Origin: Candidatus Bathyarchaeia archaeon
GTDB taxonomy: Archaea; Thermoproteota; Bathyarchaeia; Bathyarchaeales; Bathyarchaeaceae
Length of the DNA: 53,579 bases
Direction of reading: 5' to 3'
Assembly (NCBI GenBank): GCA_046760805.1
Contig: JBHIEV010000003.1
Location: forward strand, 1-53,579
The notes beneath the pieces were generated by a model. It was not told the origin of the DNA. It searched no databases and worked only from the letters and a program-made list of their open reading frames with translations. A program made the translations under genes and the position numbers. The stretch's first letter is position 1. Each line of letters starts with the position of its first letter. Of the stretch, positions 7,443-24,515 are shown in pieces.

Positions 7443-7746
7443 CTGCTTCCTCCGCGAGTTTCAGTATATCTGAGTCCCCTGCTTCTCTTACAGCTAGCGC
7501 TGAGACCATGAAGGGTTTTCCACATGCCACACCCAAATCTATACTTGTTCCACTGAAAGTGACCAACGGGATATTAGAAAGCCTGCAATAGTATTCGATG
7601 TCCTTATGAACATTCTCTGGACAGTTGGCGGCTACGATTACAAGTTTAACCTTTCCTATCTTAGCGTTCTTTACGGTGTTTTTGGCTCCCAAAAAAGCCT
7701 TCCCAGTTCTCATGGTGGTGGCAATAGCCTTGTTGATGTCGATCAT
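7435..7746 (-). CDS. rpl30e: 50S ribosomal protein L30e
   Basis: LGVACGKPF, GDSDIL; operon context. Confidence 0.95.
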   Translation of the reverse strand: MIDINKAIATTMRTGKAFLGAKNTVKNAKIGKVKLVIVAANCPENVHKDIEYYCRLSNIPLVTFSGTSIDLGVACGKPFMVSALAVREAGDSDILKLAEEADV

Positions 7747-16008: not shown

Positions 16009-16116
16009 GCCCTGGTAGTATAGTCCGGTCACAGGGAGGCGATTTCTTCCAATGCCGGAATAGTATAAGCGGCTGTCGCCCGCTTGACCCGGGTTCGAAT
16101 CCCGGCCAGGGCGCCA
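16009..16116 (+). tRNA. tRNA-Asp(GTC) with ~30-nt D-loop intron (~16031-16060)
   Basis: Acceptor GCCCTGG/CCAGGGC+GCCA, arm AGCGG-CTGTCGC-CCGCT, TTCGAAT loop; BHB-like CCGG/CCGG helix with TCA and AAT bulges. Confidence 0.93.
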
Positions 16117-16184: not shown

Positions 16185-16430
16185 GACACACGCAAGCTTT
16201 CTCGCGGGCGCTGTGTCCCACGCAACTAACACTCAACCTCACAGCAGAGCATAACGCTCCCCTCGGCCGAGCTCTCTCTAACGTGGGTTGGGATGGCGCC
16301 CGCGCCCACCGTGTCCCATGCTTGGGTAAACCCTCCGTCACAGGAAGATGAAGCATCAGCCTCTGTCGAGTCCGTCTGCATGAGCCTTTGCAAGGTCTCG
16401 GTGGGATTTCAGGCTAATCTCATCGCCACC
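16185..16430 (-). ncRNA. Unannotated ~250-nt structured RNA, possibly a multi-hairpin H/ACA guide
   Basis: GC-rich stems (GGTGG/CCACC, CTCATGC/GCATGGG, CGCGGGCGC/GCGCCCGCG, CCCACG/CGTGGG); G-U pairs favour minus strand; TATA-like TTTATC ~28 nt upstream; repeated TGGG-ACA-C. Confidence 0.6.
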
Positions 16431-16476
16431 ACTAAACTAAAGCGACCGGCAAGATAAACATTCCTTGATAACACCG

Positions 16477-18174
16477 TTATGCGGGCGGGCACCCCTCCAT
16501 GGTTCTTTCAAGATTGATCTCAAAAGCGCTAGTAGGTTTTTTGAGTTCGAAATTATTCAAGACTTGTGGGTGAATCTCACCGATAATGCCGATTTCTCTG
16601 TTTTTGAAGTTTACTTTTGCTGTTCTGCCTGGTATGAAACTCGCATGTGTGGTTTCTTTTATCTTCCATTGTTTTAGGCCTAGATTGAGGAACAATGCTT
16701 CTAGGCAGGACTTTATTTCCGTGAAACTAGCGTCAGGATGTGTCGTAACACAGGCAAGTTTGGCTATGCTCTGTGTCTTGGTTTCTGCTTTTTCGTCGAA
16801 CACAACAACATAGCCAACTTCAAATATTTTCTGCGGATATTCAACATGGGTGTTTTGGCGGAGAAACTCCATGAGGCAGGGCAAGAGCCAGTTCCGCAGG
16901 CAAGTAAAAGTTTCCATCTTGGGGTTGGCGATCTCCACAACCTTCTCCAATTTTTTGTTCATTTTTGTTTGCAAAGTTTCTGGGTTGGTCATTGTGAATG
17001 TTAGGATTTCTTGGAATCCCAAGCCTACCATAATCTCTCTAACGAGGTCGCAGAAACGCATCTGCGGAGGCACGCCACCTGTAGTCGGTAAGCGTTGCCA
17101 CCTCGGCTTGATCTTGTTGTATCCGTATGCTATGGCGATATCTTCAACAATGTCAACTGGATGCATAATGTCGATTCGATAGCACGGAATTTTCACGACA
17201 ATATATCCTTTCTGTGTTTTGCCTATTCCGTATCTGGCTTTCCTAAGTAGTTCAGCCGCCTCTTTCGGCGTGAGTTTGAAGCCTAACAGCTTTTCTACGT
17301 CCGCTAAGTCTATGCGCATTTTTTTCGTTTCAAGTTGTGGTGTTATAACGTCCTTTGATCCTTTATAGTAATAATGAATGGTTGCAGTGAAGATTTCTCC
17401 ACTTCGGTCTGCTAAGGATACAACAATCATGTTGAGTGTATTCATAACAGTTTCGTAAGAGGTTCCGGTTACCTCAATCAAAACATTGCGCGTATTCTCC
17501 GTTATTCTCCCAAGGTCGTTTGAGTTAATAATAGGCGGAAAAGAAAGCACATTATTTTTGGAGTCTGAAAGCAAGGGCCAGACAGCATGTGGGCGAACTA
17601 GGTCTCCATAGTCTATGCCTTTCGGATGTCTCTCGAGAATCTCTTTTAGAGTCATTTCTTCATCAAAACCTAAAGGTACAAAGCTAACCTGCTCGGGTTT
17701 TGCCACACCAAATCGAAGTGGGGGAAAAATCAAATCAAAATTGTAAAGCCCGATAGAAGTTCTTCTCCTATTCCTTCCATAAGTTTGGTCCAGCTTGTCT
17801 TGTAAACGCATGGCTCCACGAATCATTGGATCCGTAAATTTGATTCCTTTTAAAATTGCACAGCCAATGTAAGGTCGTATATTCTTCAACCTCGAATCCA
17901 CATAGATTTCTGCCTCAGAACTGCCAGCAATTGAATAATTCTTCAGTCCCTTTTCTAGGTTTAAGAATCCTCGAAGCGCCCTAGCGATTCCTTCCACGCT
18001 CCACAGGTCAGCACGATTGCTGTCCTTTACCTCAACGTGAATCTCCTCCTCGCCAAGGTATTTGATCTCGCCTTTCACGTAAGCCAGCAAGTCGTTGAGT
18101 TCTTCTATGTCTTCAGGAAGCTCCAATCCAAGCAATACTTCGAAATCTTTCCGTTCAACCTCGATGGTTGGCAT
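16477..18174 (-). CDS. pheT: Phenylalanine-tRNA ligase beta subunit
   Basis: NRADLWSVEG, SFPPIINS, YRIDIMHPVDIVEDIAIAYGY. Confidence 0.97.
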   Translation of the reverse strand: MPTIEVERKDFEVLLGLELPEDIEELNDLLAYVKGEIKYLGEEEIHVEVKDSNRADLWSVEGIARALRGFLNLEKGLKNYSIAGSSEAEIYVDSRLKNIRPYIGCAILKGIKFTDPMIRGAMRLQDKLDQTYGRNRRRTSIGLYNFDLIFPPLRFGVAKPEQVSFVPLGFDEEMTLKEILERHPKGIDYGDLVRPHAVWPLLSDSKNNVLSFPPIINSNDLGRITENTRNVLIEVTGTSYETVMNTLNMIVVSLADRSGEIFTATIHYYYKGSKDVITPQLETKKMRIDLADVEKLLGFKLTPKEAAELLRKARYGIGKTQKGYIVVKIPCYRIDIMHPVDIVEDIAIAYGYNKIKPRWQRLPTTGGVPPQMRFCDLVREIMVGLGFQEILTFTMTNPETLQTKMNKKLEKVVEIANPKMETFTCLRNWLLPCLMEFLRQNTHVEYPQKIFEVGYVVVFDEKAETKTQSIAKLACVTTHPDASFTEIKSCLEALFLNLGLKQWKIKETTHASFIPGRTAKVNFKNREIGIIGEIHPQVLNNFELKKPTSAFEINLERTMEGCPPA

Positions 18175-19680
18175 CTAGGTCAGCTCCTTGCGTCTTATCC
18201 AGTTCAAGTCTTGCGAGAACAAGTAGCGGATGTCGTCGATTCCAGCTTTCATCATGAACAAACGGTCAACGCCTAAACCCCAGGCTAAGACTGGCACTTT
18301 TATGCCCAGTGGAAGTGTTACTTCTGGACGGAAGATTCCTGAGCCCCCAAATTCTAACCATCCATAATCTTTTTTGTAGGCTACTAGCTCGACGCTTGGC
18401 TCTGTGAAAGGGAAATAGTCTGGTCTAAACTTCACCATGTCTGCACCCGCTATGTCTATGGCAAACCTTTCTAACACGCCTAGCAAGTCTCGCAGTGCCA
18501 AATCCTCACCAACCACTATGCCCTCAACTTGGTTGAACTCGGTTAGATGGGTTTTGTCAACCACATCAGGGCGATAGCAACGAGCTATAGCGAAGTACTT
18601 CCCTGGAATCTCCAAATCCTTGCTGAGTAAGGTTCGCACGCTCAAGGCTGTTCCATGTGCACGTAGTAGTAAGCGTTTTGTCTCACGGAGGGAGAAGCGA
18701 TATCTCCAGCCAGTAGAGCCGGTCTTCCAGCCTTTTTCGTGGGTTTTCCTTACATTTTCTACTATTGACTTATGGGCCTCAGCTTTTCCATACCTTGGTG
18801 ATTTTATGTAGTACACCCCGAAAATTTCTCGTGCTGGATGATCTTGTGGCGTGTACAGACTGTCAAAGTTGAAGAAAGATAACTCTACAGGTGGACCTAC
18901 CATTTCTTTGAAGCCTAAGGCAACTAATTTTTCTTTCAGTTTATCAAGGAACCAAGCGTAAGGATGTTTCTTTCCAGGCCACGTTATGGCAACTGGCGCC
19001 TTAATGTTATATTTTCGTAGCCTAACCTGACGCCATTTTCCAGAAACAATCAGTTCTGGGGTTAGCTGGCTGATCTCTTCAGCTACTTCTATTCCCTGTT
19101 TAACCAGCTCCCAGCCAGCATTGGTCAGCTCAAGCTCTCTCAGAGTCTTTTTGTCAATCTTCACAAGCCCTCGGCTTTTCAAGGTGGAAACAGCATCCTG
19201 CAATTCTTTGCCCAGATCCTCGACCATTTGTGGACCTTTTTCGTCTAGGAGCTGCAAGGCCTTCTCGTCCTTTCCAACCTCAGGCTTCTTCGAGAGTTTC
19301 AGAACATGCTTCTCCACAGTTGCCCAGCCCTTGCGCCTCAGCCATCCTAGGGCTATGGTTAAGAACTTTCTCTCCAAACCCGCCTTGCGGGTGGTTTCTT
19401 CGATTGTGGCTTCACCGCCCAGTTTAGCTACCGCTTCGGCCAGACGCCGTTCTGGAAGGCCTTTTCTTGCGTGATACTTTCCTTCTTTACTGAGTGTGGT
19501 TGTTGTGTGTTCCTCTTCGTGGATCTCTGCCAGCTTTTTTGTCTTGAGAGATAAGGCTGCTCGCATGACGGCGGCGTGAGCCAAGCCGCTGATCTTCATG
19601 ATTCCCTTGATGCTTCCTCTCCCACCAAGTTTTTCCAGAGCGAGCAAGGTCTTCTGCTCGTTTTCTCGAAGTTCACCCAT
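18175..19680 (-). CDS. pheS: Phenylalanine-tRNA ligase alpha subunit
   Basis: PQDHPARE, EFNQVEG, YFPFTEPS, AWGLGVDR. Confidence 0.97.
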   Translation of the reverse strand: MGELRENEQKTLLALEKLGGRGSIKGIMKISGLAHAAVMRAALSLKTKKLAEIHEEEHTTTTLSKEGKYHARKGLPERRLAEAVAKLGGEATIEETTRKAGLERKFLTIALGWLRRKGWATVEKHVLKLSKKPEVGKDEKALQLLDEKGPQMVEDLGKELQDAVSTLKSRGLVKIDKKTLRELELTNAGWELVKQGIEVAEEISQLTPELIVSGKWRQVRLRKYNIKAPVAITWPGKKHPYAWFLDKLKEKLVALGFKEMVGPPVELSFFNFDSLYTPQDHPAREIFGVYYIKSPRYGKAEAHKSIVENVRKTHEKGWKTGSTGWRYRFSLRETKRLLLRAHGTALSVRTLLSKDLEIPGKYFAIARCYRPDVVDKTHLTEFNQVEGIVVGEDLALRDLLGVLERFAIDIAGADMVKFRPDYFPFTEPSVELVAYKKDYGWLEFGGSGIFRPEVTLPLGIKVPVLAWGLGVDRLFMMKAGIDDIRYLFSQDLNWIRRKELT

Positions 19681-24394: not shown

Positions 24395-24515
24395 GGCTGC
24401 CAGCTTTCCCGGCTTCGCATGGCCGAAGACCACACTAACACCGGAAACGGAGCGCGGTTTAACTTCCGAGTTCGGAAAGGGTTCGGGTGGGTCCCGCGCC
24501 CTTTGGCCGGCAACC
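24395..24515 (-). rRNA. rrf: 5S rRNA (unlinked)
   Basis: 121 nt; terminal helix GGTTGCCGGC/GCTGGCAGCC; CCGAAC..CCGAACTCGGAAGTTAA, TAGT/GCGAA loop E. Confidence 0.96.

Follow-up and report, generated by a model that had tools for sequence, protein, structure and literature searches.

A Conserved RNA Gene Downstream of pheS-pheT in Bathyarchaeia, Probably a Two-Hairpin Box H/ACA Guide

Results

The Locus and Its Signals

The DNA analyzed here (the window, 53,579 nt in all) carries a noncoding RNA gene of approximately 240 nt, which lies on the minus strand at about 16433-16195, 3′ of pheS-pheT, and has a TATA box of its own (Table 1). Its downstream neighbors, identified with Rfam and Pfam, are a tRNA gene on the opposite strand and rpoB. 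The genome to which the window belongs (assembly G000) amounts to 1.56 Mb in 149 contigs, with a G+C content of 46.7%; no 16S or 23S gene was found in this assembly.

The original prediction, made from the letters of the window, placed a TATA-like TTTATC roughly 28 nt before a GGUGG. The element is indeed 28 nt ahead of GGUGG (16430-16426), where the RNA reads GGUGGCGAUGA and then continues GC-rich to about 16195, and every one of the 19 homologues for which upstream sequence exists shows a T-TAT box in the same column (judged by eye). Given the usual archaeal spacing of about 25 nt, transcription would start at approximately 16433-16430. At the other end of the gene, TTTTAAG follows about 8 nt past helix B (described below) in 10 of 20 copies, again by eye. 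The copy in the window (16185-16211, minus strand) is without the T-run found after helix B in many homologues, and it contains a local hairpin, CGCGAG/CUUGCG, that is chosen by a single-sequence fold and would compete with the 3′ strand of helix B.

Table 1. Coordinates of the RNA gene's features and of the adjacent genes, numbered from the first letter of the window
Feature	Position	Strand	Evidence or remark
pheS	18175-19680	-	Same strand as the RNA, upstream of it; Pfam
pheT	16477-18174	-	Same strand as the RNA, upstream of it; Pfam
Promoter	16453..16466	-	TATA box TTTATC 16458-16453, purine-rich BRE-like stretch before it
5′ K-loop-like hairpin	16411..16427	-	In the window GGC, GA, loop, UA, GCC; pocketless
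Clamp helix A, 5′ strand CCCACCG	16399..16405	-	Pairs with 16311-16305
Small variable hairpin	16385..16395	-	Between helix A and hairpin 1
H/ACA hairpin 1	16312..16384	-	RNAalifold, covariation
Hairpin 1, P1	16384-16378 with 16321-16315	-	98.6% of cells paired, 3 pairs changed on both sides
Hairpin 1, 5′ pocket strand AGACGG	16377-16372	-	
Hairpin 1, P2	16371-16368 with 16333-16330	-	
Hairpin 1, K-turn	GA 16363-16362; UGA 16340-16338	-	
Hairpin 1, apical stem	16361-16343	-	
Hairpin 1, 3′ pocket strand UUACCCAA	16329-16322	-	
Hairpin 1, ACA box	16314-16312	-	
Clamp helix A, 3′ strand CGGUGGG	16305..16311	-	Directly after the ACA box, directly before helix B
Clamp helix B, 5′ strand CGCGGGCGC	16296..16304	-	Pairs with 16211-16203
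H/ACA hairpin 2	16212..16287	-	Enclosed by helix B
Hairpin 2, P1	16287-16281 with 16223-16217	-	97.1% of cells paired
Hairpin 2, 5′ pocket strand UAGAGAGAG	16280-16272	-	
Hairpin 2, P2	16271-16265 with 16238-16232	-	90.7% of cells paired
Hairpin 2, K-turn	GA 16264-16263; UGA 16241-16239	-	
Hairpin 2, apical stem	16262-16244	-	
Hairpin 2, 3′ pocket strand UGUUAGUU	16231-16224	-	
Hairpin 2, ANA/ACA box ACACA	16216-16212	-	
Clamp helix B, 3′ strand GCGCCCGCG	16203..16211	-	RNAalifold, covariation
3′ tail	16190..16202	-	RNA end uncertain in the window

Conservation and Distribution

The gene encodes a real, strongly conserved, structured RNA. BLAST with a 331-base query found a homologue, mostly single-copy, in 34 of 41 relatives sampled from the family and order; among the high-quality genomes in the same search the count was 20 of 21, with 68-85% identity over about 230 bases. 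Over an even sample of the class, 116 of 301 genomes had a match. One relative (G297) carries two copies, at C1:521575-521804 and 1415656-1415821, the second consisting of the 3′ two-thirds only. A covariance model built from 20 sequences (R1) matched 56 of the 151 genomes in a phylum-wide sample, made up of 20/20 from the class and 36/131 from elsewhere. Some families were matched throughout (14/15, 8/8), and in each of two families of this sample none of 13 genomes had a match. In other classes the matches to R1 cover the 3′ hairpin and its clamp helix, and a weaker hairpin often lies just upstream. The original prediction suggested collecting homologues downstream of pheT; pheT is directly upstream in 41 of 63 loci, three of them from another class, and was not found alongside the remaining 22, some of which are truncated. 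An exact-pattern scan with a 16-base GC-rich motif listed mostly high-GC bacteria; among the matches listed, three Candidatus Bathyarchaeota records and a fourth locus carry the RNA, as judged by BLAST.

The same comparison bears on strand and on coding potential. At the same loci the covariance model scores 142-176 bits in the forward orientation versus roughly 17-21 bits in reverse, and the structure contains a G-U pair, G82-U133, in 20 of 20 sequences; both agree with the minus strand that had been favored from G-U pairs. The original prediction saw no credible open reading frame, and the frames that exist do not persist: a 76-aa minus-strand frame overlapping the region is interrupted by at least one stop in 19/19 homologues. 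We therefore set aside a coding function, the minus-strand frames being broken in homologues and none of them conserved.

Two Hairpins Enclosed by Clamp Helices

Folding of the single sequence is not significant (z = -1.64 for the minus strand, -0.95 for the plus strand), and so the evidence for structure rests on the comparison of homologues. RNAalifold, applied to an alignment of 20 sequences, independently yields two hairpins and two helices that we call clamp helices, in agreement with a structure drawn by hand; the GC-rich helices noted at the outset are thus real and covarying. In the hand-drawn structure 94.2% of 1155 cells are paired and 18 of 58 pairs have changed on both sides, compared with 35-47% paired in slid controls and with no shuffle as good in 500. 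A 55-row alignment gives 92.1% of cells paired, 50 of 58 pairs changed on both sides, and again 0/500 shuffles as good, figures to be read with the fact that the rows are model matches from 50 loci, all preselected by BLAST or pattern scan, that the alignment is fitted to the model, and that it includes three weak reverse-strand rows and several partial ones.

Each of the two hairpins, together with its ACA box, is enclosed by one covarying clamp helix. Helix A is paired in 100% of cells (20 sequences), with 7/7 pairs changed on both sides in the 55 rows; helix B is paired in 96.3% of cells, with 8/8 pairs so changed, and in homologues from other classes its sequence is fully rewritten with pairing kept. 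Because the 3′ strand of helix A abuts the 5′ strand of helix B without a gap, the two helices could stack on one central strand. The small hairpin between helix A and hairpin 1 is variable (84% of cells paired) and is deleted in one homologue, L017. RNAalifold also offers an alternative for the lower part of the upper stem of hairpin 2 (A192-U240 and neighboring pairs); this alternative is without covariation and breaks the rule that a K-turn lies 9-10 nt from the base of its stem, and for these reasons C194-G236 was retained.

H/ACA Anatomy of the Hairpins

The original prediction read the RNA as a multi-hairpin H/ACA pseudouridylation guide, and both hairpins fit the structural definition of an archaeal box H/ACA sRNA. 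Above a lower stem of 7 bp, each one opens into a pocket of two strands and continues as an upper stem that holds a K-turn and, past it, a covarying apical stem; in the K-turn as drawn, a 5′-strand GA lies opposite C-NRU-GA in the 3′ strand. All 20 sequences carry the same GA, UGA, and ACA letters, except for one G that is kept in 18 of them, and in hairpin 2 the UGA and a GAGAGAG do not vary either. Among the single-stranded parts of the RNA, conservation is highest in the pocket strands. At the foot of each hairpin a UGGG leads into ACA, as had been seen (16321-16312 and 16223-16212). The ACA directly after hairpin 1 is invariant, and an A-N-A stands directly after hairpin 2 in 19 of 20 sequences by eye, the exception being L013; the latter box is ACACA in most copies and ACAGG in a distant group.

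The spacing of these elements is also that of archaeal guides. From the box to the top of the pocket there are 15 nt in both hairpins, or 16 nt in copies with a 1-nt insertion, and the K-turn of hairpin 1 is 10 nt from the base of P2, that of hairpin 2 being 9 nt from it. The rules for archaeal H/ACA RNAs, as given in the text excerpted from PMC7075261, are an n+15 spacing and a K-turn 9-10 nt from the P2 base, and both hairpins conform to the two of them. K-turns and pockets had at first been judged imperfect. For the K-turns that judgment does not stand, since they are good once correctly drawn; pairing in the pockets is indeed imperfect, leaving five target bases unpaired. One further feature counts against reading the RNA as a guide, which is that the ACA box of hairpin 1 runs directly into helix A.

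Genes for Nop10, Gar1, and two proteins of the L7Ae family are present in the genome, as is a piece of the Cbf5 gene where a contig ends. One of the L7Ae-family genes is in the window (7462-7737, minus strand, 78 bits), about 9 kb from the RNA; the second, a better match, is on contig C1.

The 5′ Domain

Upstream of helix A, 35 of 66 homologues have the motif GC-GA-loop-GA-GC, a short hairpin with two potential sheared G.A pairs. A GA..UA variant occurs in the window and in one homologue, and the UA in the window counts against the guide reading; the motif is absent from the other 29 homologues, which belong mostly to other orders. GAUGA, within GCGAUGA, is invariant or nearly so in the 20 sequences. 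We regard this K-loop-like hairpin as a putative, lineage-specific extra site for L7Ae. Two features that had been proposed from the window fared poorly in comparison. The GAUGA was thought to form a C/D-like pair with a CUGA, yet that CUGA is found only in the copy in the window, and the conserved partner is instead the GAGC that closes the short hairpin; a box C/D sRNA was accordingly rejected, since GCGAUGA is conserved but no CUGA box D is. A 7-bp pseudoknot, UUAGCCU/AGGCUGA, is paired in 50% of cells versus 47.7% in a slid control, and 113 of 500 shuffles do as well.

Predicted Targets in 23S rRNA

Because the window's genome is without a 23S gene, 23S and 16S genes were taken from relatives, and each relative's own guide was paired with its own rRNA. 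A strict search, allowing the canonical two-base (UN) unpaired target, returned matches at the level of noise only. In a relaxed search the target could have two to six unpaired bases including a U, and the guide up to three unpaired bases at the top of the pocket. Here the top site for hairpin 1, the 5′ hairpin, is the peptidyl-transferase (PTC) loop in all three genomes (CUGGGU[UUAGA]CCGUC in G015, CUGGGU[UUAGA]CCGUCG in G022, and UGGGU[UUAGA]CCGUC in G317), and the top site for hairpin 2, the 3′ hairpin, is helix 69, UAAC[UCUGA]CUCUCU.., in four of five (G015, G022, G441, and G336). These are the two regions that the original prediction had named as possible targets. In G317, whose 3′ pocket is a variant (UGAUAGGUUA), helix 69 is not the top site under the pairing model; only a second register, GGUUAC with GUAACU, fits it, against the spacing rule.

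The predicted pairing at both sites is bipartite. Five bases are left unpaired (UUAGA and UCUGA) where the canonical number is two, a departure that counts against the guide reading. Scores are modestly above those of shuffled guides: the observed score was reached by 12/400 and 1/400 shuffles for hairpin 1 and by 112/400 and 9/400 for hairpin 2. The scores being no more than modestly unusual, the argument leans on the recurrence of the same two sites at the top across genomes, both sites being known H/ACA targets. The guide of G022 shows extended pairing, nine bases with CUCUCUUAA and six with CCGUCG. Many copies contain a tandem GUUA-GUUA, which offers a possible second register on GUAAC; at least one register is intact in every copy looked at, and either may be the one used.

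Mapping onto an annotated E. coli 23S gene gives positions one base below the conventional numbering, because the annotated copy is 2903 nt long. In conventional numbering we take the PTC site to be C2579-U2584 / U2585-A2589 / C2590-C2594 and the helix 69 site to be U1911-C1914 / U1915-A1919 / C1920-U1926. Counting from the ACA of hairpin 1, position 14 of the guide is a U opposite U2585, so that U2586 comes at position 15. The corresponding position 14 in hairpin 2 is a G paired with C1914; U1915 then falls at position 15, and U1917 two bases farther on. The Haloferax positions 2605, 1940, and 1942, discussed below, are presumably E. coli 2586, 1915, and 1917.

In two homologues from another class, L217 (G441) and L226 (G336), the pocket strands differ in the hairpin that precedes the helix 69 guide, and the best 23S site of this hairpin is near 136-150; in G441 this site has the canonical two-base UA, UGGGUUAA[UA]GCCC. 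The different strands and site suggest that the partner hairpin has been exchanged or retargeted between classes.

Discussion

Relation to Known RNAs

The double-hairpin H/ACA guide is a known kind of RNA, and this one lies outside the catalogued families. The Rfam comparison proposed in the original prediction found no family at the site at gathering thresholds. With E values up to 10 the only relevant match is the last hairpin of HgcG (RF00064) at 16217-16288, with 12.0 bits and E = 0.6. When 331 bases of homologue L018 were scanned, the HgcG alignment extended across the entire RNA (16.3 bits, E = 0.014), its last hairpin falling on hairpin 2. HgcG is the only H/ACA match of the RNA in Rfam, and 16.3 bits against a gathering score of 77 means that, by Rfam's rule, the RNA is not a member. 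The last hairpin of the HgcG model aligns with hairpin 2 here, including the GUUA pocket strand and the ACA box. HgcG comprises Pab40 of Pyrococcus, Pf7, and Afu4 of Archaeoglobus, also multi-hairpin archaeal H/ACA sRNAs; as the excerpted text has it, Pab40 possesses three guide motifs, the third of which targets U2016 in stem-loop 69, and the others target 2588 and 1932 in P. abyssi numbering (PMC2377435). The RNA described here differs in having two guide motifs rather than three, and the portion of that report compared describes no clamp helices for Pab40 (PMC2377435).

The closest functional parallel is sR-h45 of Haloferax. According to the excerpts compared, it is a double stem-loop whose 5′ loop directs Psi2605, in a canonical stem-loop with UN unpaired, and whose 3′ loop directs Psi1940/1942, leaving UNUN unpaired; its loops are 56 nt apart, and the spacer may form a pseudoknot (PMC7075261). 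On that comparison, the two RNAs share two hairpins with the same order of targets, predicted ones in the present case (the domain V GGGUUUAG loop for the 5′ hairpin, helix 69 for the 3′), a K-turn in each upper stem, an ANA/ACA box behind each hairpin, and more than two unpaired target bases at helix 69 (PMC7075261). In silico, the 5′ hairpin would pair with the domain V UUU site and the 3′ hairpin with the region of two helix 69 uridines, a likeness at the level of predicted targets. The differences are that two clamp helices enclose the Bathyarchaeial hairpins in place of the 56-nt spacer, and that the 5′ hairpin's target has five unpaired bases here and the canonical UN in sR-h45 (PMC7075261). 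These comparisons lead us to predict that the RNA works like sR-h45 and shares its type of helix 69 hairpin with Pab40. What is new is an uncatalogued family, with clamp helices that are undescribed in the texts compared and with atypical pockets.

Nearer in phylogeny, the six H/ACA RNAs of Sulfolobus islandicus, from the same phylum-level archaeal group and with the same protein machinery, are all single hairpins in the excerpted account, four of the six without a lower stem and ACA, and none is reported there for helix 69 (PMC11077068). A limited literature search found no paper on H/ACA or K-turn RNAs of Bathyarchaeota or Thaumarchaeota, and PMC4652768 makes no mention of these groups.

What the RNA Probably Does

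Taking conservation, structure, motifs, spacing, complementarity, and the presence of the protein genes together, we consider it likely that the gene encodes a two-hairpin box H/ACA guide sRNA of about 240 nt, expressed from its own promoter, for helix 69 and the peptidyl-transferase loop of 23S rRNA. Such an sRNA would be transcribed from the minus-strand promoter, and, by analogy with characterized archaeal H/ACA RNPs, the K-turn of each hairpin would be the site for L7Ae, and its lower stem and ACA/ANA box the site for Cbf5-Nop10-Gar1, with a bipartite pocket presented to 23S rRNA. The 5′ hairpin would pair with CUGGGU and CCGUC on either side of the PTC loop and direct modification of E. 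coli U2586 (or U2585), 15 nt from the ACA; the 3′ hairpin would pair with UAAC and CUCUCU(U), which flank the helix 69 loop, and place U1915 15 nt from the ANA, with U1917 two bases on. Binding by Cbf5 and L7Ae, catalysis, and the exact uridines modified are thus predicted by analogy. The two clamp helices, sharing one central strand, would enclose each hairpin with its ACA box, and the K-loop-like hairpin at the 5′ end would be a lineage-specific extra.

We offer one elaboration that is, in our own estimate, unlikely. The clamp helices may form a rod that fixes two H/ACA RNPs and a third L7Ae site rigidly with respect to one another, and the 5-nt loops may let each pocket act on two uridines (1915 and 1917, 2585 and 2586) or hold both sites during 50S assembly. 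If so, the clamped rod would be a machine for coordinated two-site modification and assembly, as opposed to two independent guides on a string.

Other Readings of the Locus

Some eukaryotic H/ACA snoRNAs act in processing, and an H/ACA-type RNP in Bathyarchaeia might similarly modify nothing, its role being instead to chaperone rRNA folding by holding on to helix 69 and the PTC loop during 50S assembly. We judge this distinctly unlikely. The unpaired target loops are oversized at 5 nt each, and the strand-sharing clamp helices join both pockets in one particle, two points in its favor; on the other side, H/ACA RNPs are reported to modify targets with four unpaired bases, in both pockets the residue exactly 15 nt from the box is a uridine known to be modified in other archaea (PMC7075261), and nothing in our data argues against catalysis. 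The uridines at position 15 tell equally against a structured RNA of a new class that only resembles H/ACA, for instance an L7Ae-binding scaffold or regulator whose complementarity to rRNA arose by chance; neither account explains why known modified positions should stand there in both pockets. The original prediction had kept a new class in reserve, and the lack of an Rfam match at threshold, pairing scores only modestly above those of shuffled guides, and three K-turn-like motifs would all suit it. We nevertheless find it quite improbable, for the pocket strands are the most conserved unpaired parts of the RNA, the top rRNA sites (3/3 and 4/5 genomes) are those of a known archaeal double-hairpin RNA, and the spacing rules hold in both hairpins; with the H/ACA definition satisfied, the fallback is not needed.

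Two further readings concern the gene's identity rather than its action. The frequency with which pheT lies directly upstream (41/63 loci, three in another class) might mean that the conserved sequence belongs to the pheS-pheT operon, as its 3′ UTR or a cis-regulatory element, and is not a separate gene. A conserved TATA box stands between the pheT stop and the RNA, however, 22 of the 63 loci have no pheT found alongside (some of these loci being truncated), and H/ACA anatomy accounts for the conserved parts, so that we hold this reading to be very improbable. A divergent RNase P RNA came under consideration since RF00373 has no significant match in the window's genome (best E 0.37), and we think the chance of it vanishingly small: with the E limit relaxed to 10 the region still matches no RNase P family, and in four of five relatives a canonical RNase P RNA (198-219 bits) is encoded next to the 23S gene while this RNA occupies another locus, which refutes the identity. 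As 16S, 23S, and RNase P RNA are missing from the assembly together, the rRNA operon probably failed to assemble and took the RNase P RNA with it. The gene is also not that of the SRP RNA, which is elsewhere in the genome (contig C28, 168.8 bits).

Significance

The reading as a two-hairpin guide, then, is the one we carry forward. Pseudouridines of helix 69 and the peptidyl-transferase loop are among the most conserved of rRNA modifications, and we know of no archaeal guides for them outside a few cultured euryarchaea and the Sulfolobales. Bathyarchaeia are a large class, mostly uncultured, and the locus gives them a specific candidate guide along with its predicted targets; portions of the RNA are also found in other branches of the phylum. 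The covariance model could join the libraries of RNA families, which would allow the gene to be annotated in hundreds of genomes. With its clamp helices and five-base unpaired loops, the RNA is also a test case for how far H/ACA RNPs tolerate pockets that depart from the textbook.

Other RNA Genes in the Window and in Relatives

Several RNA genes came to light beside the one described. The tRNA gene downstream of it (16014-16107, plus strand) carries a 35-nt insertion in the region of the D-arm, probably a non-canonical intron; it scores 29.8 bits, just above the Rfam threshold, and was missed by ARAGORN. Its anticodon loop, read by eye as CUGUCGC, would make it tRNA-Asp(GUC). The window also has an isolated 5S rRNA gene (24395-24514, minus strand, 68.5 bits); neither a 16S nor a 23S gene is near it. 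The distance between the RNase P RNA and 23S genes in relatives is 0.3-2 kb, as in G022 (C1:898601-898893 and 899197-902261) and G015 (C44:48401-48703 and 50653-53723). The 16S match in G015 (L031, C7:2523-4206) spans 1684 bases, compared with 1478 in the model, which suggests an insertion or intron.
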